Below are positions 893 to 31,132 of a DNA stretch of 64,000 bases, in pieces (positions within the stretch are counted from its first letter, which is position 1; every line of letters begins with the position of its first letter). The DNA is taken from positions 3,595 through 67,594 of the IMG/VR virus record IMGVR_UViG_3300032300_000346; one strand, given 5' to 3'. The notes under the pieces are model-generated. The model did no database searches. It worked only from the letters and a program-made list of their open reading frames with translations, and had not been told where the DNA came from. Made by a program: the position numbers and the translations under genes. This DNA comes from a virus. Lineage: Duplodnaviria > Caudoviricetes.

Positions 893-1129
893 TTATTTAG
901 CCCACATCAAATGATACATGGCCAATGTCTGCTCGTCGTAGAATTCTGCCACTAATCTGCAGTAAAGATCATTTTGTTCCAAGATCAGCTGGCATACATT
1001 ATGCGGCTGTTCTAGCAGCCATTTGGTATGATCCAAGCCCAGTGTTTTGTGTACCTTGGGCCAATCTATTTCTATTGTTTCGTTCTCTTCGGGAACCCAG
1101 CTTAACAGTGAAACTTTTTTATTCTTCAT
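893..1129 (-). CDS. hypothetical protein (78 aa)
   Basis: ORF overlapping the helicase stop and filling the gap in a co-directional run. Confidence 0.55.
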   Translation of the reverse strand: MKNKKVSLLSWVPEENETIEIDWPKVHKTLGLDHTKWLLEQPHNVCQLILEQNDLYCRLVAEFYDEQTLAMYHLMWAK

Positions 1130-2549
1130 CGTTCATCGAGTTCAAAATCTCACGTAGCTTGGTGCTTTGTACACTGCCTCGAACTCGACCTAGACTAGAA
1201 CCCTGTGTGGGATCTGCTATCTCACCGATTTCTGGATCTGCTTTTACAGTTGATCTATTTTTAATGCTTTCAATCAGTGAACTAGACCCGCGACTGGTAG
1301 CACCGTTAGATTCTTGTTCATCTTCGGGTAGGTCACTGATTTTAAGAGTTTCGATATTGAACTCTAGATCAATTTTCATACCCACACCACTGCTTGAACG
1401 TGTCTTCATTAACTGCAATTGATACCTACCACGTTCACGCATTGCACGACTTGTAAAGATACCAATCACATTATCTGCCGTTTGAATCTTAGATAGTCCG
1501 CCTGAAATATGACTGTGATCGAATTCAACTTCTTCAACTGCACCACGATTCAACTGTGCCGCAGTCACAAACACACATTGCTTTTCCATTGCTAGATTAC
1601 GCAATTCTTCTGACACATACTTGTCTTTGACAAACAAGTTTTCTGCGGAGATCTTCTTGCCAATTGGCATTAACAAGTCCATATAGTCTACTAGTAGAAC
1701 ATCTACTTTCTTACCGCATTTAATTTCATATTCTTTTAGATATGCACGAATGTCGTTGACTGTTTTACCTGACGGCATATATTTGACCTGTAGCATACCC
1801 GACTTCTTGCCAATCATCTTGACCTTCATTTCGATATCATCTAGATTCTTAAAGATTTCTCTAGTGCTAACTCCGGTAACCATACTGTCAATACGCATAC
1901 TTACCAATGCTTCACTAAGTTCCAGTGTTAGGTATACCACATTAAGGCCAGCCAGTGCAAAGTTAACGCCTAGATTTGCCAAGAACAAACTCTTGCCTGC
2001 ACCCGAGCCACCTGCAAATATGTTGAGCTCTCCACGATTGAATCCGCCAAATAGCTTGCGATCCATACAAGGCCACCCTGTACTGACTTGTCCGTTCTTG
2101 TCTTTTAGTCCCATTAGACGTGCTCTAGGATCTGCAAAGTAATCTGTGCCCATATCGCGAGCAAGACCAATCTGAACTGCTTCTTTGATCAGAGCTTCTA
2201 CTTCACCGTAGTTTTTATTTTCCAATAATTCAGCACTGCTGATAATAGCACGTTCTAGTGCTTTATGACGAGTAAAGTTTTCAAACTCGTCGAGCAGCCA
2301 GTCCATGTGGCCTTCTTTCATATCTTCCGGCTTTTTGAGATCTGTTCTGCAACTGGCATTGACCATGTCAAAGTCAGGCAATACATTGTAGCCCTTGGCA
2401 TATTCATTCATGAACTCTGCCGCATCCTGTAGCTTTCGATCAAACAGCGTGTGATCGAAAATACCTTGACAACGAACAAATACTTCTGCATCTGCCAACA
2501 TCAATTCAAGATATAATTTTTGTACTTCGTAACCGTAATCTTTTATCAT
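1119..2549 (-). CDS. gp41: replicative DnaB-like helicase (T4 gp41-like)
   Basis: Walker A AGGSGAGKS, VDYMDL Walker B, AAQLNR, IQTADNV motifs. Start moved to ATG 2549 because the upstream GTG lies in a TATAAT promoter. Confidence 0.93.
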   Translation of the reverse strand: MIKDYGYEVQKLYLELMLADAEVFVRCQGIFDHTLFDRKLQDAAEFMNEYAKGYNVLPDFDMVNASCRTDLKKPEDMKEGHMDWLLDEFENFTRHKALERAIISSAELLENKNYGEVEALIKEAVQIGLARDMGTDYFADPRARLMGLKDKNGQVSTGWPCMDRKLFGGFNRGELNIFAGGSGAGKSLFLANLGVNFALAGLNVVYLTLELSEALVSMRIDSMVTGVSTREIFKNLDDIEMKVKMIGKKSGMLQVKYMPSGKTVNDIRAYLKEYEIKCGKKVDVLLVDYMDLLMPIGKKISAENLFVKDKYVSEELRNLAMEKQCVFVTAAQLNRGAVEEVEFDHSHISGGLSKIQTADNVIGIFTSRAMRERGRYQLQLMKTRSSSGVGMKIDLEFNIETLKISDLPEDEQESNGATSRGSSSLIESIKNRSTVKADPEIGEIADPTQGSSLGRVRGSVQSTKLREILNSMNDEE

Positions 2550-2554
2550 AATAC

Positions 2555-2585
2555 TATTATACACGAATCTCTATATGTTTCACAA
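2555..2585 (-). promoter_or_regulatory. putative sigma70-type promoter for helicase
   Basis: TTGTGA-N18-TATAAT on minus strand, inside the end of the upstream gene. Confidence 0.5.
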
Positions 2586-3504
2586 CCCCAAGATCTATAT
2601 CACGTACTTGTTGCTTAGTGTGATATAAAACAGCACCAATACTACTGCTAGGGTCTCCCGGATTAGGCAACGACCAAATATATTTAAATTTAGGTTCGAC
2701 TACACTCTTGTTGGCCTTACTATTCATGGCACATCCGCCCATATATACTAGACAATCGGAGCCAGTTAGTTCTTTTGCCTTATTCATGATCAGTTCAATT
2801 TGTTCTTCAAACACCAATTGAACAGCAGCAGCAAGATTACATTCGTCTTCTATGCTATCTATGTAGAATTCTTGATCGGTAACACCTTTGTGAAAATTAT
2901 AATTCAATTTCAAAAGTCCTGTAAAATATTTTTTTACTCTGTAATAAAAAATTTTAGGATTACCTTTTTCAGACATTTGTTGTAACTGGTATTCGTCTCG
3001 AATTGGAGTCATTCCAAGGGCGTGAGTGAATGCACTATAAAATAGTCCCAAGCTGTGCGGATAACTACGGCTCCATACTTTTGTCATCTCGCCGTGATGA
3101 CAATTCCATATAGTTGCACACTCGAACTCACCAATAGCGTCAAGCACAACAACCACACAACGATCGAACGGACTAGTGTAGTATCCGGCCGCAGCATGAC
3201 TGCCGTGATGAGGAGTATAAGTAATAGGTGCATAGTGTACTTTTATTTTGTTTAGATATTGTTTAGGCAGAACACTTAGATCAAATGCTCTACGATATTG
3301 CCCCGAACGTAGTTGTCTTGCTTTTTTAAGCCAAGGACGCTCGTACCAAAATATACGATCAGGACCTCCATGATACAGTGCTTCAAAGATTGCAGATTGA
3401 TCTAATTCGTCATTAGAAGAACTTTGATTCGATATTAGTTTACCTTCTTTAATCACTGCAAGACTGCTGCCGTGATTAAGAGCGTTAATCCCCCACTCAA
3501 TCAT
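2557..3504 (-). CDS. NodU/CmcH-family carbamoyltransferase, N-terminal Kae1-like domain only
   Basis: NHGSSLAV, HHGSHAAAG, VLDAIGE, SLGLFY, GGCAMNSKAN, PGDPSSSIGA motifs; ends at 315 aa without the C-terminal GPRALGxRS (YrdC-like) domain. Confidence 0.85.
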   Translation of the reverse strand: MIEWGINALNHGSSLAVIKEGKLISNQSSSNDELDQSAIFEALYHGGPDRIFWYERPWLKKARQLRSGQYRRAFDLSVLPKQYLNKIKVHYAPITYTPHHGSHAAAGYYTSPFDRCVVVVLDAIGEFECATIWNCHHGEMTKVWSRSYPHSLGLFYSAFTHALGMTPIRDEYQLQQMSEKGNPKIFYYRVKKYFTGLLKLNYNFHKGVTDQEFYIDSIEDECNLAAAVQLVFEEQIELIMNKAKELTGSDCLVYMGGCAMNSKANKSVVEPKFKYIWSLPNPGDPSSSIGAVLYHTKQQVRDIDLGVVKHIEIRV

Positions 3505-3617
3505 TTGTAGATAAAAGGATCACGTTTTCGTAGTTCTTCCAAACGTTTTTTCATCCTTTGTTTTTCTTTATATTGATAATAGGGATAGCTTATCCAATAC
3601 CATATTTTTTTAAACAT
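3501..3617 (-). CDS. small basic protein (38 aa; missing from ORF track)
   Basis: MFKKIWYWISYPYYQYKEKQRMKKRLEELRKRDPFIYK; start overlaps primase stop and stop overlaps next ATG (ATGA), i.e. coupled on both sides. Confidence 0.7.
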   Translation of the reverse strand: MFKKIWYWISYPYYQYKEKQRMKKRLEELRKRDPFIYK

Positions 3618-4626
3618 TTTCATTCCTTATTTTTATCTTTTGTTCTTGCATTTTCTTTGCCATTTCTAATCTAATAGCACCGTGTTGTGCGGTCTTGATA
3701 GCATCGACTATGACAAATAATTTACCATATTTTTTTACAGCATCTGCACAATCTTTAATATCTTTATCCCAGTTAGGGAACGCCACTGACCAATCGTAGT
3801 CTATGGCCTGTTTGATCAATAGTACTCCGGCTTGATCTTGATCAGGGATCACAATAACTTCTTTGCCTAATTGATTAATGATGTGTGCCTGTTGTTGTGA
3901 TATTTCATTGGTTAATAATGCAACTCCGTCGATTGCCAACGCATCAAACGGCCCTTCACACACGAACACATATTTGCTCAAAGGATCCTGTGCATCAACA
4001 TTGAACACAAAAAAGGGATGTTGATCTGATAGATACTTAGGCTTACCGTCTCCTACTTTACGAGCAGTATTACCAACTACAACTCCGTCATACTTAAAAG
4101 GAATAATTACACGATCAATAAATCCAGGAGCAGGGCTCCAGCAGAAATTGTCATCCAGAGGATCGTATCCTCTGCCTATTAGATAATCAATAACCTTGCC
4201 AATGTCTTCGGCAATATCTGGCAAGTATGCACTATTGACCCACTCTGCAATGGTCATTGTTGCTTCGGGCAGATCTTTCTTGGTAAATTTAACCTTTTCA
4301 ACAAAGTGTTCAGGTTCGTAGTCTAGGCTTTCAGTTTTGAGTGCTTCAAAGACCAAATGTTTGATCTCATCATCATTAGCGCCTAGCCATCGACATAGTG
4401 TTTTAAACTTTTCAGTTAGTGTTCTTCCTGGTTGCCAATTAGCTGTATATTTGCAGTTAAAACAGTTGTAGACAACTCCTTCACTGAACATTATGCCAGC
4501 ACGTTTTCGAGTATCTCTTGCGTGACCTCTGTGTTGACAACAGGGAGCATTGAAACTGATCCATCCACTGGGGCTGGATTTAATTTTGGGCAATAATAAG
4601 CGGAAACGGTCTAAGACAAGTGTCAT
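3610..4626 (-). CDS. DNA primase (Zn-finger + Toprim; gp61-like)
   Basis: N-terminal CC.H...YNCFNC zinc motif, RVIIPF, PKY, VCEGPFDA and IPDQDQAG Toprim motifs. Confidence 0.88.
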   Translation of the reverse strand: MTLVLDRFRLLLPKIKSSPSGWISFNAPCCQHRGHARDTRKRAGIMFSEGVVYNCFNCKYTANWQPGRTLTEKFKTLCRWLGANDDEIKHLVFEALKTESLDYEPEHFVEKVKFTKKDLPEATMTIAEWVNSAYLPDIAEDIGKVIDYLIGRGYDPLDDNFCWSPAPGFIDRVIIPFKYDGVVVGNTARKVGDGKPKYLSDQHPFFVFNVDAQDPLSKYVFVCEGPFDALAIDGVALLTNEISQQQAHIINQLGKEVIVIPDQDQAGVLLIKQAIDYDWSVAFPNWDKDIKDCADAVKKYGKLFVIVDAIKTAQHGAIRLEMAKKMQEQKIKIRNENV

Positions 4627-4632
4627 AGACTT

Positions 4633-4661
4633 AGTATACTATCTATACAGCACTTTGTCAA
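4633..4661 (-). promoter_or_regulatory. sigma70-type promoter for primase operon
   Basis: TTGACA-N17-TATACT. Confidence 0.8.
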
Positions 4662-5442
4662 CGGTTCCGGAGGTCGGAGTGTGTTTTATTCTAAACCAAT
4701 TGTATTTGCCGACCAAATTGTGATAATCATTAACAGCATTTTCAAAATTCAATGTAGCAACATCAGCCCAAACTTCTGGACTTCCACCGTCACTAAGACT
4801 GCCTTGAATAATTACCGATCCACTGTAGTTTGTAAAGTAAAATTGAAATGTATGCAAGGAGTTTGGAGCAGTGACTTCTGGTTTAGCATCGATAATACTG
4901 CTGATATAATAATCGATAAAATTTTCTCCAAAACTCTTGTGTAGACTAAAAACTTTGATTGAGTTACTGTCAGTAGCAGAACCGTAGATAGAATGTGCTA
5001 CTTCTATGGTACCCAGTGTGCCGTACTGACTGTCAGAATACAACGGAGTTTTTTCAGATACTAGGTATTCGTTTGCATTTATAGTAGTTCTAGTTTCTCT
5101 ATGCAAACTGTATTGATAACTACCTGTTTCAATATCTAGTAGATCAGCAGCGGTAAGGGTAACGTTAATTTTGCCTGTAACTAGATCAGTGACTGTGCAG
5201 TCTTTTTCTAAAATCAATTCTTGAGTGTCTCTGCCCACTAGGGTAAAAACCACTGTAGATCCGGTTATATTCAAGGATTTTTGATCGGCATTTTTGACCT
5301 GCACTTTGATCCGGTTATCCATTCCGCCGTAGACTTTTATGTTTCGTTGATACACTTTTCGATACCTCTCTGTTGTCCAGGCGCCGACATTTGTAAACAC
5401 ATCGATGTTATTTGGGTATAAATAAACTGAAATTTGTTGCAT
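4639..5442 (-). CDS. putative virion/baseplate protein with BppU-like N-terminal domain
   Basis: IKVQVKNADQKSLNITGSTVVF...GKINVTL pattern resembles BppU_N; late-type promoter at 5464-5471. Confidence 0.45.
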   Translation of the reverse strand: MQQISVYLYPNNIDVFTNVGAWTTERYRKVYQRNIKVYGGMDNRIKVQVKNADQKSLNITGSTVVFTLVGRDTQELILEKDCTVTDLVTGKINVTLTAADLLDIETGSYQYSLHRETRTTINANEYLVSEKTPLYSDSQYGTLGTIEVAHSIYGSATDSNSIKVFSLHKSFGENFIDYYISSIIDAKPEVTAPNSLHTFQFYFTNYSGSVIIQGSLSDGGSPEVWADVATLNFENAVNDYHNLVGKYNWFRIKHTPTSGTVDKVLYR

Positions 5443-5472: not shown

Positions 5473-5844
5473 ATGAGAATAACAGAAAACTTACAACAAA
5501 ACTTTCCATTTATATCCGTGCTAAACCACGTAGATCAAGAATATGTTGGTATTATAATTAACCAAGATAATCAGATTACTAGTATGTACGACTATTCGTT
5601 GATAAAATCAGACCTAGAAAAAAGCAGGTTTATAGAACTTGGAGAAGCTTGGTGGTGGGAATCCAACCGTCAAATACCTATCAGTATCTTTCTTGCTAGA
5701 GAAATTTTTACTTATAGATATGCTATACGAAATTTTGCAACCAAAGATATTAAAGTTATACTAGGACCAATCACCAGTCTCAATGATATCATAATCAAAC
5801 GTGTAAAAAGAAAATCTATTACACTAGTAAGAAGAGTGCCCTAA
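5473..5844 (+). CDS. hypothetical protein (123 aa)
   Basis: Fills gap between divergent/convergent neighbours; 4-nt convergent stop overlap at 5841-5844. Confidence 0.65.
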   Translation: MRITENLQQNFPFISVLNHVDQEYVGIIINQDNQITSMYDYSLIKSDLEKSRFIELGEAWWWESNRQIPISIFLAREIFTYRYAIRNFATKDIKVILGPITSLNDIIIKRVKRKSITLVRRVP

Positions 5845-6419
5845 GAGTACCCGTAACTAATTTGTTCGCAGATTAAATTTATTTGAACAACAATAGCAAC
5901 AGCATAGGCTGTAGCATGGCTTTTCTTAAAGTAATAATCGTCAGTCTCTGGTTTCATCCACACTTCCGTCATCACAGTTGTCCAATCTTTTCCTATCAGA
6001 TGCCGCTTGGCCGGCCGTATCATTCCCAACACTGCCGCTAGTTGTTCTACGTTTTTCGGCTGCATTTCTTTGAGTATGGAACCATGCCCGTTGACGTGAA
6101 AAAGCAAACTGGTGAAATCGTCTTGTAGTAGTAAATCCCATAACGGCTCCTGATTCATTAGGTGTACTAAGTGATTTTCATCTTTAATACCTTTGTATAA
6201 TCCAACATTGAGAAAATCTATTTTAAAATACTCTCTTTGTTCAGCAGTATCATAAGGAACTGCACATAGTCCTGTTAGGGCGTTAACTGGTACTTCGTGC
6301 ATATAGATGCCAGTGTTATGCTTGACCAATCGATTGTTTTCAATACGACTGGCTCCTACGTGTTTGAATAGTTTTAATGCAGAATCTCTGTCTGTAAAAT
6401 CTATGTCTATGTCAGGCAT
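5841..6419 (-). CDS. miniature C-family (DnaE-like) polymerase core, 192 aa
   Basis: Starts at MPDIDIDF and has HNTG, FKIDFL, LAAVLGMIRP and FKKSHATAY, colinear with Pol III alpha palm/finger motifs. Confidence 0.8.
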   Translation of the reverse strand: MPDIDIDFTDRDSALKLFKHVGASRIENNRLVKHNTGIYMHEVPVNALTGLCAVPYDTAEQREYFKIDFLNVGLYKGIKDENHLVHLMNQEPLWDLLLQDDFTSLLFHVNGHGSILKEMQPKNVEQLAAVLGMIRPAKRHLIGKDWTTVMTEVWMKPETDDYYFKKSHATAYAVAIVVQINLICEQISYGYS

Positions 6420-6658
6420 TATTGCAATCTCGTGCTTTCAAAAAGTAATAATGGTAGTGTCTCTGCTAAAAACTGTGCATATTCTTCAGCGTCTTCAGCG
6501 TCTTCAAATCCGGAGAATTTTACATAAACGTCGCTAGAGTCTTCGGCCACAACCACTTCGATATCGATGTCGTCTCTGGATATATGTTCTTCGTTGTCTT
6601 TAAGTTCTTCTTCAACAACTTCTGGTTCTAGCTCTTCTCGTCGTTTCTTAAAAATCAT
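6419..6658 (-). CDS. acidic hypothetical protein (79 aa)
   Basis: Coupled ORF (overlaps at both ends). Confidence 0.55.
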   Translation of the reverse strand: MIFKKRREELEPEVVEEELKDNEEHISRDDIDIEVVVAEDSSDVYVKFSGFEDAEDAEEYAQFLAETLPLLLFESTRLQ

Positions 6659-7341
6659 AATATTTTTGCCTCCTTAATGACATCTTTTATTAATTCAACA
6701 TCAGCAGGCAGTGCTTTAAATCTTCTCATCCAAAATTGTGGATCAATGTATGGCTCAACAATGGCCAGTTGTTCGTCGTTCATTTTTGTCAACATCTCTT
6801 TGCCTGCTTTCGTATTTAACACAAGCCAAGGACTAATTGTGCCTTCTTTAATATCATGAGTAGCTCGATTGAGATTCACATAGGCAAAGTAGTGTTCCCA
6901 TTGTGCATTGTTCACATTGGCCCAATCCATCATGGTTTTAATTGATCGCTGAATAGCGCCGTCGGCCGGTTCTATTTTTATTAATTCAGAAACATAGGTA
7001 TCATAAAGTTCATCACGGCACCAATGATCTAGTTTGATACCACTCTTGATCACATAGTCTATAAATCTTTCTGGATATATCGGCGATGTATTAACTAAAA
7101 AACTTCCGAATTTAACAAAAGCAGTATAGTATGGACTACTAGCAAAATCATCAAAACTTTTAGTAGATTTGACCGTTTGGGTAATTTCATAGAATCTCTG
7201 ATAGGTTAGGAGTCCTGCCTGAACGTGCTTTTCTGTTTTTGACATATGGCGACGTTTTTGTTCGCAGACATGAACAAATAGTGTTTTTTCTTTGGCGAAA
7301 AGTTTTTCACAGAATTCGCATTTATAATTTAAGTTCTGCAA
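6655..7341 (-). CDS. hypothetical protein with N-terminal zinc-finger-like motif
   Basis: YKCEFCEKLFAKEKTLFVHVCE (Cx2Cx12HxC); start set at TTG 7341 to limit overlap with upstream gene. Confidence 0.65.
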   Translation of the reverse strand: MQNLNYKCEFCEKLFAKEKTLFVHVCEQKRRHMSKTEKHVQAGLLTYQRFYEITQTVKSTKSFDDFASSPYYTAFVKFGSFLVNTSPIYPERFIDYVIKSGIKLDHWCRDELYDTYVSELIKIEPADGAIQRSIKTMMDWANVNNAQWEHYFAYVNLNRATHDIKEGTISPWLVLNTKAGKEMLTKMNDEQLAIVEPYIDPQFWMRRFKALPADVELIKDVIKEAKIL

Positions 7342-7801
7342 TTTGTTTTTTATCCCAACCGAGGTCTTGGCAGTATTCTTTAATTTCTTTGTCTGTGGTA
7401 ATTGCGGCAAGAGTTTCAATATCATTGTGTTTCATATTAGGAAAGAATTGAGAAATTATTTCTTCTTTTTTATTCTTGGATTTTTTTAAGGGTATGTATT
7501 CGTGAAAGTGTGTTTTTCCATCGCCATAACTACACAGACACAACAACATCCAAACCAACTTGGGATGTTGTTGTATAACTGCCCAATTTTTATTGTAGAT
7601 TTCATTTGTGATTTCTACAAAGTGTTCCTGGATTTCTTTGTTGGAACTTTTGACATTGCTAATGTAGCGATTTAAATTCCAAAAATCGCCTTTGATTTCT
7701 TTACGACCTTCGTCTGTGGTAGCATCCCAAAGTTCTTTGACTCCTAGATCTACTGCAGGAATTATATCTTTAAAAAGATCTACGTGTTTATTCTTTGCCA
7801 T
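7322..7801 (-). CDS. putative clamp-loader small subunit (gp62-like)
   Basis: Size and FWNLNRYIS...NEIYNKN...HPKLVWMLL pattern reminiscent of T4 gp62 family; replication context. Confidence 0.5.
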   Translation of the reverse strand: MAKNKHVDLFKDIIPAVDLGVKELWDATTDEGRKEIKGDFWNLNRYISNVKSSNKEIQEHFVEITNEIYNKNWAVIQQHPKLVWMLLCLCSYGDGKTHFHEYIPLKKSKNKKEEIISQFFPNMKHNDIETLAAITTDKEIKEYCQDLGWDKKQIAELKL

Positions 7802-28013: not shown

Positions 28014-29009
28014 TTACTTTTGACGATTGCGAATCATGGCAAGGATGTCTTGCGCACGACTTGCACTTTCACCAGTAGGTGCTGCTGGTGCTGCCTTCAC
28101 TGCTGGAGTAGCAGGTTCTTCCCAAGGAGCATCTTCTTCAACTGCTGAAGCGGCTACTGGAGCGGCTACTGCGGCACGTGGTGCGGCGGATTTATTAGGA
28201 TCACCTGTAGCTTGACCCATTCCTGCTGGTTTGAAGTATTGACCCCAACGATCCATATCATATGCTTCACCGTCAACTGACGCTTCGAACATTTCTTTCA
28301 TGACCTTGAGCTCAACATCTGTAGGCTTTTTAGGCAAGAAGTCACTTAGATTGTGTAATCCAAATTGTTCAATAGCTGCCTTGTCTGCATCAGAAATTGC
28401 ACGTTCACGACGGCTCCACTTTGAAGTAGAGTAGTCAGCAAAGCCACCTTTTGATGTCTTTGCAATACGGAAGTCTACGCCACGCATATAGTCAGTTGGC
28501 AATTCTTCCAACTCTGGATCCATTAATGCTGAACGAATGATTTGATAGATCTGAGGACCGATGATAAATCTACGGATAGGATTCTCTGGAATTCTATCTT
28601 CCTTGATAGGATCTTCTACCACAAAGCCTTGAAAGATGTATGAACGTTTCTTCCAGTATTTACGACCCATTTCTTCCAGAGCCTTGTCTTTAAACCAGCC
28701 ACGAACTTCTGTAAGAATTGGGCAGGCTGTACCGTCATTGTACATTTCTACACAAGGAACCTGTACCTGTACAGCTCGTGAATCTGTTTCACCTTTGATA
28801 CCTGCAAACGGTAATTTGATCATTGCACGTTCTACCCAGAAAAATGTATTGGCAGAGTTGCCATCGGGTAGTAAGCGAATTACTGCTTCCTTGCCTTCCT
28901 GCATATTCCAATGTGGGTAAATTGCGTTGTCTCCACCGCCGGTGGATTGTCCGGTGGACTTTGATTGTGCTTCTTGAAGTTTCGCACGAATTTCTGCTAA
29001 TGTTGCCAT
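28014..29009 (-). CDS. gp32: single-stranded DNA-binding protein (gp32-like)
   Basis: VIRLLP, VQVPC...CPI, KKRSY, G.DF.I.KT..GGFADYSTSKW, flexible C-terminal tail. Confidence 0.88.
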   Translation of the reverse strand: MATLAEIRAKLQEAQSKSTGQSTGGGDNAIYPHWNMQEGKEAVIRLLPDGNSANTFFWVERAMIKLPFAGIKGETDSRAVQVQVPCVEMYNDGTACPILTEVRGWFKDKALEEMGRKYWKKRSYIFQGFVVEDPIKEDRIPENPIRRFIIGPQIYQIIRSALMDPELEELPTDYMRGVDFRIAKTSKGGFADYSTSKWSRRERAISDADKAAIEQFGLHNLSDFLPKKPTDVELKVMKEMFEASVDGEAYDMDRWGQYFKPAGMGQATGDPNKSAAPRAAVAAPVAASAVEEDAPWEEPATPAVKAAPAAPTGESASRAQDILAMIRNRQK

Positions 29010-29141: not shown

Positions 29142-29459
29142 TCAAGAATCCACGTTTGCTCTAGTTTGACTCAATTCTTTTTTCAAAGACTCATAATCTT
29201 CCAACACAGATAGTGTAGGTAAATTTGCTCCGCGATATGCAGGAGACACAGTCTGCCATTCTGATTCTTGCACACCAGAAACAATCATTGCATGATACTC
29301 GTGTCCATCACTGGTATGTAATTTTACACGCTGGAAGCCATGAACTGTCTGTGCTGCCTTGAGCATGGCGTTAGCCAATGCTCGTAACGCAGAAGGATCT
29401 GCTACTACCACGAGATCTTCTTGTGGTTCAGCGTGGGGATATATGTGTAGTCTAGCCAT
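29142..29459 (-). CDS. hypothetical protein coupled to DnaE-like gene
   Basis: TAATG 1-nt overlap with the dnaE-like stop. Confidence 0.6.
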   Translation of the reverse strand: MARLHIYPHAEPQEDLVVVADPSALRALANAMLKAAQTVHGFQRVKLHTSDGHEYHAMIVSGVQESEWQTVSPAYRGANLPTLSVLEDYESLKKELSQTRANVDS

Positions 29460-31132
29460 TATGTAATGTGTTCAATGTCTTTGATATCTAATCTCTTACT
29501 CTTGTATACTTTAACACACTCACTGCGATTTGTATAGTCCAATTTACCTTTACCCCACAAGATTGGTTGATCGTGGAAACTGATAGCATGATTCAGCATG
29601 ACATCCAAATAGCGACCATTGCCGGTGCCTATGGTTGCAAAGGTCATGTAATTTTTTGGACCACTCTTGAACACTCTATAGTTGGCCACTAGCCCTAAGA
29701 ATTCAACTTCGCCCGGACGCCTTATTTCTTGACAGGCTGGAATGAATCGTTCGCTGCTCCAGCGTCCGGTGCGAACTAATTCACTGCACTCGTCACCCTC
29801 ACCAAAACTACTCACAGCGCCAGCTAACTTGGCTTCTTGCCAATAGACCCAACGACTGTAACTGCCTTGGCAGTGTTTCAGCACTGCTGCCCAGAATGCC
29901 TTAGGATTGTGTGCTTTCTGGTAGGCCAATGCCCAAATCAATCTGCCCAAATTAGTAGCATGGGCACGGCATAGACCAAAGTGGCTCAGTTCTCTAAGTG
30001 CGGTCAACACACTGTCTCTCTCAGGATGATCACCGATCAACTGCATGAACTCAAAAATCTTTTCTTCATTTTTTTTGGCAAATGCTCGGCGCCACATGTC
30101 TGCGGTGTACATGTCACATTTTAGAATATCTGCTATCAATGTGATAGCATCATCCTCAAACACAATAGTGTGATCGAAGTTGTCTTTACTCCAGTCCTGA
30201 AATGCACTGGCCTTGCGTCGACCCATGGTAGCTACTGGTCTAATCAATGCAGTGGCCAGTGTGCAGTCACTACGACTTTTTACTCGCAGTGCTCGAAACA
30301 ATCGTTTCATGGCTGGCGATTCTCCTTGAGTCACACCCAGCACATTGCCTTGCTCTAGTATTCGACTGGTGGCTTCATCGTATTCAGGATAGTCCATTAG
30401 CGGTCGTTGATCTATTTCCCACAGTTGACTAAGACCTCTATTAGCCAGTATGTCAATCTTGAAGTGTTCGAGATCCTCACACTCATTTTTGTCCAGCAGG
30501 ATTTGATTGGTCTGATTGATTAAACTCTTAGGTACTGCTCGATCAAAGATAATGATGCCGCCACAGTGTTTGCTGATACAGCGTTTCTTGCCCATTAACT
30601 TGGCCGTGATCCTCTCTGCTTCAGCAACTTCTTGTTCTGGTAATACATCATCAAATTTAAAGTTGCGTTTAAGTACTCCCTTGGCACCCATACGCTTGGC
30701 AGCTTCTCGCCTAGCTGACTTTTCTTTATACATGATATAATTAGACACTCGAGCACTTTGGCCTGGCCAGCGTTTGAATATTCTATTCATCACTGTTTCT
30801 TGTTGCCAATGCGGAAAATCTAAATCAATGTCCGGTAAGTCATCGCGTTTGGGGTTCATGAATCTAGCAATAGGTATGCCTTCTGCTACAGGATCTAAAT
30901 CACTAATGCCCATAAGCCAACATACGAGACTAGAACCTGCTGACCCTCTGGTGATGTGTGGTATGTCTGTTGTGAGATCTAATATTTCTCTCACTCGCAA
31001 AAAATGTTTGCTGAAATTCTGATCTCTAATTAGTTCTAATTCTTCTGCTAACCTATCTGTATATCTAACATCTTCTGGTATTGTGCGCCTAAATTGTGTT
31101 ATGAGCTGTTCTAAGTCTTTGTATCTATCCAT
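29459..31132 (-). CDS. dnaE: DNA polymerase III alpha-like (DnaE) lacking PHP domain
   Basis: RGSAGSSLV, RFMNPKRDDLPDIDLDF, HCGG, KIDIL, LGVTQGES, ALIRP, FGLCRAHA; C-terminal OB-fold-like segment. Confidence 0.88.
   Translation of the reverse strand: MDRYKDLEQLITQFRRTIPEDVRYTDRLAEELELIRDQNFSKHFLRVREILDLTTDIPHITRGSAGSSLVCWLMGISDLDPVAEGIPIARFMNPKRDDLPDIDLDFPHWQQETVMNRIFKRWPGQSARVSNYIMYKEKSARREAAKRMGAKGVLKRNFKFDDVLPEQEVAEAERITAKLMGKKRCISKHCGGIIIFDRAVPKSLINQTNQILLDKNECEDLEHFKIDILANRGLSQLWEIDQRPLMDYPEYDEATSRILEQGNVLGVTQGESPAMKRLFRALRVKSRSDCTLATALIRPVATMGRRKASAFQDWSKDNFDHTIVFEDDAITLIADILKCDMYTADMWRRAFAKKNEEKIFEFMQLIGDHPERDSVLTALRELSHFGLCRAHATNLGRLIWALAYQKAHNPKAFWAAVLKHCQGSYSRWVYWQEAKLAGAVSSFGEGDECSELVRTGRWSSERFIPACQEIRRPGEVEFLGLVANYRVFKSGPKNYMTFATIGTGNGRYLDVMLNHAISFHDQPILWGKGKLDYTNRSECVKVYKSKRLDIKDIEHIT

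Follow-up and report, generated by a model that had tools for sequence, protein, structure and literature searches.

What can a protein of only 192 amino acids (aa) that carries the catalytic motifs of the alpha subunit of DNA polymerase III (Pol III alpha) contribute to a phage? This question is raised by a gene at positions 5841–6419 in a stretch of 64,000 nucleotides from an uncultured virus of the Caudoviricetes (positions 3,595–67,594 of the IMG/VR record IMGVR_UViG_3300032300_000346; this whole stretch is called the window in the following). The source contig has a length of 67.6 kb and is 19% complete. An earlier sequence-only reading of the window had regarded the protein as a minimal C-family polymerase core and had offered two explanations, namely that it is one half of a naturally split polymerase or that it is a repurposed stand-alone enzyme. 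We are confident that the first explanation holds and that the protein represents the C-terminal subunit of a much reduced C-family polymerase which is encoded by two genes and found in T4-like jumbo phages of group 2.2. We refer to it as the C-unit and to its proposed partner as the N-unit. The gene and its motifs are as follows:

5841–6419, minus strand: C-unit, the presumed C-terminal unit of a split minimal Pol III alpha with the Asp-bearing palm strands and a reduced finger module; 192 aa, ATG start
6396–6416, minus strand: PDIDIDF motif, residues 2–8; D3 and D5 correspond to the metal ligands D401 and D403 of Escherichia coli alpha
Residues 33–37 of the C-unit: KHNTG motif, read from the sequence
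6210–6224, minus strand: KIDFL motif, residues 66–70; D68, the third catalytic Asp, matches D555 of E. coli alpha
6012–6020, minus strand: IRP finger motif, residues 134–136; counterpart of LYRPGP in DnaE
5904–5930, minus strand: FKKSHATAY finger motif, residues 164–172; counterpart of FNKSHAAAY in DnaE

The protein opens with MPDIDIDF, and all motifs, including KHNTG which had been recognised as an HxxG motif, follow in the order of Pol III alpha, so that this part of the earlier description can be read directly from the sequence. The start codon shares the sequence TAATG with the stop codon of an upstream open reading frame (ORF) of 79 aa, which indicates translational coupling, and the 3′ end of the gene shares 4 nt with the end of a convergent ORF of 123 aa. 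The C-unit matches almost the whole length of the profile phrog_11778 (E 2.2e-64, residues 3–186 versus profile positions 8–194 of 197), a dedicated PHROGs family with a length like that of the C-unit. Similarity to the cellular enzymes is much harder to detect by sequence. The Pfam finger domain PF17657 reached 13.8 bits (E 0.036) with a gathering cut-off of 22, and PF07733 was not reported. In a phmmer search of the PDB the DnaE matches were not significant (E 2.4–8). The three local matches to DnaE1 of Mycobacterium tuberculosis (5lew; whole-sequence E 2.4), each of them non-significant, are nevertheless colinear at residues 413–424, 616–664, and 773–787, the second pairing with the IRP region and the third with the FKKSHATAY region; these PDB matches are of use for motif colinearity only.

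A protein six times shorter than cellular DnaE with a finger match below the Pfam threshold could be what is left of a full-length DnaE after decay or truncation, or it could stem from an assembly error. The distribution of the family speaks strongly against this. With tblastn we found the C-unit in 96 phage records, nearly all of them jumbo-sized genomes, and 95 of these matches cover at least 80% of the query. The identity is 52% to Agrobacterium phage Atu_ph07 and 49% to Sinorhizobium phage Phosso, and it amounts to 33–39% for phages of the PA5oct, RaK2, 121Q, GAP32, and CBB types, with 36–39% for PA5oct, RaK2, and the 121Q type. More than 545 relatives are present in IMG/VR. The ORFs taken from the best of these loci are almost all of one length: 71 of the 78 have exactly 192 aa and all fall within 189–193 aa. 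In a collection of 5.8 billion proteins clustered at 90% identity, at least 7,947 clusters match with E ≤ 0.001, and proteins of 192–210 aa make up the 120 best that were listed. A full HMMER scan of 1.84 billion representatives, clustered at 50% identity, gave 420 clusters; those full-length matches that were listed have about 180–220 aa and begin within a few residues of the DxD motif. Environmental viromes contain this family in great abundance. A word-indexed search returned no closely similar protein of at least 337 aa; this is weak evidence and is superseded by the HMMER scan, in which the longer forms among the matches listed are solely fusions of an N-unit and a C-unit with 336–376 aa. 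Relatives never carry the C-unit inside an intact long DnaE.

The pattern of substitutions points in the same direction. The ratio of nonsynonymous to synonymous substitutions (dN/dS) between the C-unit and its closest relatives is 0.06–0.10. The Asp motifs are under strong purifying selection, and 79 close relatives show no variation in PDIDIDF, K66, or D68. In a broader set of 85 representatives with 27–60% identity the invariant residues are D3, D5, K66, D68, and P136, whereas D7, H34, I134, R135, K165, H168, and G37 are conserved to at least 90%. All three catalytic aspartates are therefore kept, as had been proposed. Frameshift debris is also absent, in agreement with the sequence-only reading, as a six-frame search of the whole contig with PF07733 (E ≤ 10) detected only an unrelated gene of 557 aa. 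In addition, the gene order around the C-unit is conserved from RaK2 to the Atu_ph07-like phages. The C-unit is a real, selected, full-length gene. Given the lengths of the relatives, the dN/dS values, and the invariant residues, we consider truncation, artefact, and pseudogene to be excluded for all practical purposes.

What kind of protein is encoded can be judged from its predicted fold. An AlphaFold2 model based on an alignment of 85 sequences has high scores (predicted local distance difference test, pLDDT, 96.3; predicted template modelling score, pTM, 0.88), and in a Foldseek search of the PDB the best 18 matches are all Pol III alpha or PolC. With VIA-align, residues 1–190 of the C-unit superpose on E. 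coli alpha 400–784 (Z 8.5), Thermus aquaticus (Taq) alpha 461–841 (Z 9.4), M. tuberculosis DnaE1 419–811 (Z 8.9), and PolC 971–1296 (Z 9.5), with about 185 residues aligned to each C-family target, and the first unrelated chain follows at Z 3.7. We therefore conclude that the C-unit comprises the Asp-bearing part of the palm and a reduced finger module. Compared to the segment 400–784 of E. coli alpha the thumb is gone and about 200 residues are deleted, and nothing corresponds to the residues before 400 or after 784. Accordingly, the model has no counterpart of the PHP domain, the RGS region, the clamp-binding region, the helix-hairpin-helix (HhH), and the OB domain, and most of the fingers are gone, which bears out the list of missing parts given before.

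The missing RGS region leads to the central point of the argument. The RGS/GS loop that binds the dNTP is not on the C-unit chain according to a motif scan and a PF07733 search, as the chain begins past the loop. When we searched relatives in six frames with PF07733, we found separate ORFs which cover only positions ∼11–97 of the model in Phosso, RaK2, and Ettore and which are encoded far from the C-unit. In Phosso and RaK2 these N-units are annotated as proteins of 177 aa and 172 aa (RaK2 ORF162), respectively. They end with the sequence ...GRGSSV.SY.L.L.G.H.V.S..Y.LD..EFL(N/K), that is, the N-unit stops exactly where DnaE goes on with PDxDxDF and where the C-unit begins. Of five long uncultured relatives, three (G002, G003, and G005) have an N-unit ORF, with 155–168 aa. 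Such ORFs are also found in G006–G008, including the 337-kb genome G007, which has terminal repeats, is rated 100% complete, and holds an N-unit, a C-unit, and a family-B DNA polymerase (PolB). The RGS loop (R149, G150, and S151 in the numbering of the fusion protein P0206, see below) is invariant across the N-units.

Both units also occur in the same lineages. The tblastn hits for N-unit and C-unit per phage genus are 34 and 34 for Escherichia, 8 and 8 for Erwinia, 8 and 8 for Salmonella, 4 and 4 for Xanthomonas, 4 and 4 for Yersinia, and 2 and 2 for Agrobacterium phages. Where both genes could be located in a record, they are ∼35–225 kb apart. Separate N-units of 155–177 aa in complete relatives, shared lineages, and rare fusions thus agree with the prediction of a naturally split polymerase. 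The partner differs from the one expected, however: the sequence-only reading had anticipated an N-terminal fragment with PHP and RGS, and the N-unit carries the RGS loop, while no PHP domain is found in the system. The N-unit has a conserved neighbourhood of its own, with some variation. In three uncultured relatives (L091–L093) the N-unit gene is preceded by two structural-like ORFs and followed by a GroES/gp31-like gene and a MazG-like gene; in Phosso the downstream GroES gene is kept and the MazG-like gene is found upstream, and in RaK2 an ORF annotated as ‘head morphogenesis’ takes the GroES position.

A further link between both units is provided by natural fusions. Only two clearly longer proteins were found among the 150 best representatives, P0206 with 375 aa (match at 190–371) and P0264 with 336 aa (match at 112–284). 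In both proteins the stretch GRGS...EFIK is followed by a short linker and then by D(F/Y)DI(D/E), which reads DYDIE in P0264, and PF07733 spans the junction. Two relatives of P0206, namely P0271 and P0272, share 78–81% identity with it and stem from other assemblies, so that this trio of 375–376 aa is documented in three assemblies. The genes of the P0206 type occupy the same locus as the split C-unit:

L096, 1066–2193, and L178, 519–1649: fused forms of the P0206 type (P0206, P0271, and P0272)

The local order in the contigs of P0206 and P0272 is that of the window, with small upstream ORFs, the polymerase gene, and a convergent ORF of ∼120 aa which is homologous to the ORF 5473–5844. The upstream ORFs of the fused forms have 75–78 aa and stand at the position of the 79-aa ORF of the window. 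The second fusion has other surroundings: P0264 directly follows, and overlaps the end of, a gene for a 552-aa ‘Replicase’ of family PF03090 (L097, 1516–4181, on an 8-kb contig), and both genes may form a primase/replicase–polymerase pair of a smaller element.

We computed a midpoint-rooted FastTree phylogeny of 100 C-halves. The P0206 trio (support 1.0) is nested in a clade of otherwise split forms with 12 members (support 0.99), and P0264 falls together with another clade of split forms (support 0.88). As far as can be read from this tree, the result suggests two secondary and independent fusions of N-unit and C-unit, a conclusion which depends on the position of the root.

The fused protein also allowed us to model both halves as one chain. 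For this purpose we used an alignment (A5) of 35 N-units, 10 C-units, and 4 fusions in which both halves are in register; the MAFFT alignments A2, A4, and A6 with many C-units were discarded as they misplaced the N-units onto the C-half. The AlphaFold2 model of P0206 has a pLDDT of 84.5 and a pTM of 0.78. Residues 80–375 are mostly above 90, the linker at ∼181–190 averages 65, and the prediction is poor for the first ∼80 residues of the N part. As one body the model superposes on Taq alpha 289–830 with Z 22.0 (290 residues, 3.1 Å), on M. tuberculosis DnaE1 303–800 with Z 21.6, on PolC 817–1288 with Z 21.0, and on E. coli alpha 272–773 with Z 15–16, and the next matches are nucleotidyltransferases of the Pol-beta type (MenT, Cid1, and CutA) with Z ∼3. 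The Z score thus climbs from ∼9 for the C-unit alone to ∼22 for the fusion, and therefore the halves are predicted to pack like the palm of a C-family polymerase. We take the P0206 model as the best available proxy for the putative heterodimer.

These results allow us to weigh the second explanation of the sequence-only reading, that the C-unit works without an N-unit as a stand-alone enzyme, for example, as a terminal transferase, a nucleotide-modifying or signalling nucleotidyltransferase, or a primer-processing enzyme. The C-unit alone is folded by AlphaFold2 at a pLDDT of 96, its gene lies far from that of the N-unit in a different gene block, and the N-unit is missing from the contig and from two long relatives, all of which would suit such an enzyme. 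However, nucleotidyltransferases of the Pol-beta fold need a G[GS] loop, and this loop is found on the N-unit, where it is invariant, and not on the C-unit. Furthermore, both units co-occur phyletically, they have been fused at least twice, and the fusion model agrees with the palm of Pol III alpha at Z 22, compared to Z 9 for the C-unit alone. The findings on the N-unit thus disfavour the stand-alone enzyme, which we regard as unlikely.

Several of these observations bear equally on the split polymerase, as points which weigh against it. The N-unit is not present in the 67.6-kb contig, and the pairing is thus not seen in the source phage itself. The contig was searched with the regular expression [RK]GS[AVGS], by phmmer with the N-units of RaK2, Phosso, and the relatives, and in six frames, and only the 557-aa gene was returned. 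The search for an N-terminal fragment that had been recommended with the sequence-only reading was therefore negative for the contig and positive for RaK2, Phosso, Ettore, G002, G003, and G005–G008. The absence is uninformative since the contig is 19% complete, since the GroES-like and MazG-like genes which flank the N-unit in relatives are likewise not in the contig, and since both units are ∼170–185 kb apart on a linear contig in G002, G003, and G005, the closest long relatives with both. No N-unit is detectable in the assembled parts of two long relatives either (79% and 56% complete); in G001 the gene order places the expected position of the N-unit just past the end of the contig, which also lessens the support for a stand-alone enzyme. 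The confident fold of the isolated C-unit is compatible with an independent function, and without the thumb and most of the fingers a DNA polymerase activity is not guaranteed. Finally, the literature searched contains no biochemical or genetic test of either unit, and the PA5oct omics paper and the RaK2 paper have nothing on the split-polymerase genes. Taking these points into account, we still hold it to be highly probable that the C-unit is the C-terminal half of a split mini Pol III alpha. Homology, fold, split point, co-occurrence, fusions, and purifying selection are documented for this reading, and the formation of a heterodimer, its polymerase activity, and its particular role are inferences.

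How might such a polymerase be built? The C-unit would supply the palm beta-strands with the metal-binding residues D3, D5, and D68 and the finger module with the RP and KSHA motifs. The N-unit of ∼155–177 aa, which would be encoded beyond the contig, would supply the helical N-terminal part of the palm and the RGS loop which is expected to hold the triphosphate of the incoming dNTP. As the N-unit ends with ...EF(L/F)(N/K) right before the PDIDIDF of the C-unit, the two chains could dock and complete one nucleotidyltransferase fold of the Pol-beta type. The product would be a catalytic core of ∼300 aa devoid of PHP, thumb, clamp-binding, HhH, and OB domains. Since the catalytic and the dNTP-binding residues are invariant in both halves, we lean towards the view that the complex is a working DNA polymerase, as far as conserved residues can tell. 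A non-catalytic replisome scaffold with a polymerase-like fold could likewise dispense with the thumb, most of the fingers, and the clamp-binding motif, and the C-unit is in fact surrounded by genes for virion-annotated proteins and for proteins of unknown function. Nevertheless, ∼420 clusters at 50% identity keep the three aspartates as well as K66, R135, P136, K165, and H168 without exception or almost so, which is not expected of a scaffold, and we deem this explanation very improbable.

A split minimal Pol III alpha was already described for group 2.2 jumbo phages by Iyer, Anantharaman, Krishnan, Burroughs, and Aravind (2021, Viruses 13:63; PMC7824862). According to these authors, these phages possess, besides the family-B polymerase, a “phage-specific minimal version” of Pol III alpha in two parts: an N-terminal protein binds the NTP, a C-terminal protein binds Mg2+ and the template, and the genes of both lie far apart. 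Other Pol III domains are stated to be absent from the phages (PMC7824862). We re-identified the N-units independently by the six-frame PF07733 search. The C-unit corresponds to the published C-terminal unit in that it starts at the DxD motif, belongs to a family of ∼190–210 aa, and is found in what is probably a T4-like jumbo phage; moreover, its gene stands beside those of the primase and helicase, and in relatives the N-unit is distant and PolB is present. The source phage differs from the published system as it belongs to an uncultured environmental clade known from IMG/VR and as neither an N-unit nor PolB is found on its contig. In contrast to the statement cited above, it also has an unsplit DnaE without PHP domain, the 557-aa gene. 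The C-unit should be regarded not as a damaged DnaE, nor as something newly invented, but as a member of a kind that was predicted from sequence in 2021. What we can add is modest: the natural fusions and their model, the selection statistics, and the presence of three polymerase systems in some phages.

It is instructive to compare the C-unit with other C-family enzymes. Like the structurally characterised Pol III alpha and PolC proteins (E. coli, 2HNH; T. aquaticus, 2HPI/3E0D; M. tuberculosis DnaE1, 5LEW; Geobacillus PolC, 3F2B), it combines a palm of the Pol-beta type, which bears PDxDxDF and KxDFL, with the RP(G) and KSHA motifs of the fingers. Unlike these, it is ∼6 times smaller, has no PHP domain, and leaves the RGS loop to a separate polypeptide. 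Due to the deletion of the thumb the distance from the DxD motif to the third Asp is ∼60 residues compared to ∼150 in E. coli alpha, the fingers comprise only ∼120 aa, and the clamp-binding motif, HhH, OB, and the tau-binding region are missing. The DnaE-like polymerases of phages (phrog_405, to which the 557-aa DnaE belongs) are C-family catalytic cores carried by phages as well, but these are single chains with RGS, DxD, third Asp, a fuller finger module, and a C-terminal extension, and the C-unit is only marginally similar to them. A further comparison is given by the natural fusions P0206, P0271, P0272, and P0264, whose C-terminal half is homologous to the C-unit (35–37% identity) and which, unlike the C-unit, have an N-unit in front that is connected by a short linker of low model confidence.

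If the complex is a polymerase, where does it act? The genes around the C-unit might give a hint:

7322–7801, minus strand: phrog_11758-like ORF, at the same position in RaK2, Phosso, and Ettore
6655–7425, minus strand: 256-aa protein with a C2H2-like zinc finger (YKCEFCEK...H..C), phrog_11058 (E 4e-61)
6419–6658, minus strand: acidic 79-aa ORF, coupled to the C-unit by TAATG and recognisable only in close relatives
5473–5844, plus strand: convergent 123-aa ORF, phrog_11637 (E 2e-32)
4639–5442, minus strand: BppU_N or virion-structural-like protein, PF10651 (E 1.2e-5) and phrog_14467, position conserved
3610–4626, minus strand: gp61-type Toprim DNA primase, phrog_47 (E 3e-32), Toprim_2
2557–3504, minus strand: carbamoyltransferase N-domain protein (Kae1-like) of 315 aa, between primase and DnaB helicase
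1119–2564, minus strand: replicative helicase of the gp41/DnaB type, PF03796 (E 3.5e-19)

RaK2, PA5oct, Phosso, and the uncultured relatives share the order of this block: the phrog_11758-like ORF, the phrog_11058 protein, the small acidic ORF, and the C-unit are followed by the convergent phrog_11637 ORF, the virion-structural-like protein, the gp61-type primase, and the DnaB-type helicase. The primase is placed in the same order in RaK2, Phosso, and Ettore. In these three phages primase and helicase are adjacent, whereas the Kae1-like gene is inserted between them in the source phage. The coupling to upstream replication genes that had been assumed before is not correct in this form, since the genes immediately upstream are of unknown function and the primase and the DnaB helicase are located downstream on the same strand.

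Two neighbours deserve attention. The phrog_11058 protein is found upstream of the C-unit in Phosso, RaK2, and Ettore as well as in six uncultured relatives (G001–G003 and G006–G008). As listed, its ORF overlaps the ORF 7322–7801 by ∼100 nt, and because of this overlap it probably starts internally, near 7341. In the ESM Atlas it has only unnamed viral clusters as matches, which give no functional lead. The phrog_11637 ORF lies beside the C-unit in every locus of the jumbo-phage type that was examined, including the fused forms in L096 and L178, and it is convergent to the C-unit at all loci with the exception of L030, where it is ∼1.3 kb away; it was not found beside P0264 in L097. Neither Pfam nor the ESM Atlas gave a functional lead for the 123-aa protein, which we propose as a candidate partner subunit.

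Two further DNA polymerases have to be considered. The first is encoded in the window itself:

29459–31132, minus strand: unsplit DnaE without PHP domain, 557 aa, PF07733 (E 3e-38) and finger domain (E 1.7e-9)
29142–29459, minus strand: coupled 105-aa ORF
28014–29009, minus strand: adjoining gp32-like single-stranded DNA-binding protein

This DnaE bears its own RGS, DxD, third Asp, finger domain, and C-terminal extension. It was found at 57 IMG/VR loci, its counterparts in G006 and G007 are 78% identical, the C-units of these two genomes being only 35–40% identical to that of the window, and it lies in a GC-richer stretch (0.42–0.44 compared to 0.34–0.39). The spread of the loci, the difference in identity, and the base composition suggest that the gene is patchily distributed and moves laterally among co-occurring jumbo phages. 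We also considered the 557-aa DnaE as the missing half of the C-unit and rejected this possibility, as the protein is complete in itself and absent from most phages with a C-unit.

A looser partnership, with the C-unit serving the 557-aa DnaE as an alternative palm and finger module or as a regulatory subunit, is very unlikely as well. The two genes occur together in the window and in G006–G008, but the 557-aa protein needs no complement for its RGS loop, DxD motif, and third Asp, and no DnaE of this type was detected when RaK2, Phosso, Ettore, and five long relatives with a C-unit, as far as these are assembled, were scanned with PF07733. The sequences are barely similar (E 0.014), and the contrasting identities given above suggest a gene that moves independently of the C-unit.

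The second polymerase is PolB with ∼890 aa, which is present in six of the eight long relatives searched. It is not found on the 67.6-kb contig, where the gp61-type primase, the gp41-type helicase, and the gp32-like single-stranded DNA-binding protein are present. The complete 337-kb genome G007 combines PolB, the DnaE without PHP domain, and the split mini enzyme.

For the split polymerase we propose the following role. The main replicase of the phage would be the gp43-like PolB, and therefore the mini enzyme is most likely an accessory DNA polymerase of low processivity at the replication fork. As the C-unit is always embedded in the primase–helicase block, the likeliest tasks would be primer extension before the hand-off to PolB, or gap filling or repair. 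In Bacillus subtilis the work of replication is divided between DnaE and PolC. Based on this analogy and on the fixed place of the gene near the primase and the helicase, it may be suggested, albeit tentatively, that the enzyme extends primers or fills gaps at the fork alongside PolB. A more far-reaching proposal combines these elements: the N- and C-unit pair and the 336–376-aa fusions might be the smallest active C-family polymerases, which would work independently of a clamp and without proofreading and would extend the primers made by the primase before the hand-off to the gp43-like PolB, and the convergent ∼120-aa protein and the zinc-finger protein, both tightly linked and universally conserved, might be further subunits that replace the thumb and the DNA-binding domains. 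As a whole we regard this scheme as possible but doubtful. If it is true, the hand-off to PolB would be the phage counterpart of the hand-off from DnaE to PolC in B. subtilis and from Pol alpha to Pol delta in eukaryotes.

For the window itself, the result is mainly a correct annotation. The family is known as a split mini Pol III alpha solely through sequence prediction, and the cultured hosts of RaK2, PA5oct, 121Q, and Atu_ph07 bring direct tests within reach. If active, the two-piece enzyme would be a minimal catalytic core of the C-family with ∼300 aa instead of more than 1,000 aa, and its Pol-beta-like palm would be assembled from two chains which are split right before a catalytic strand. 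Many giant phages would then run two, and some of them three, DNA polymerase systems.

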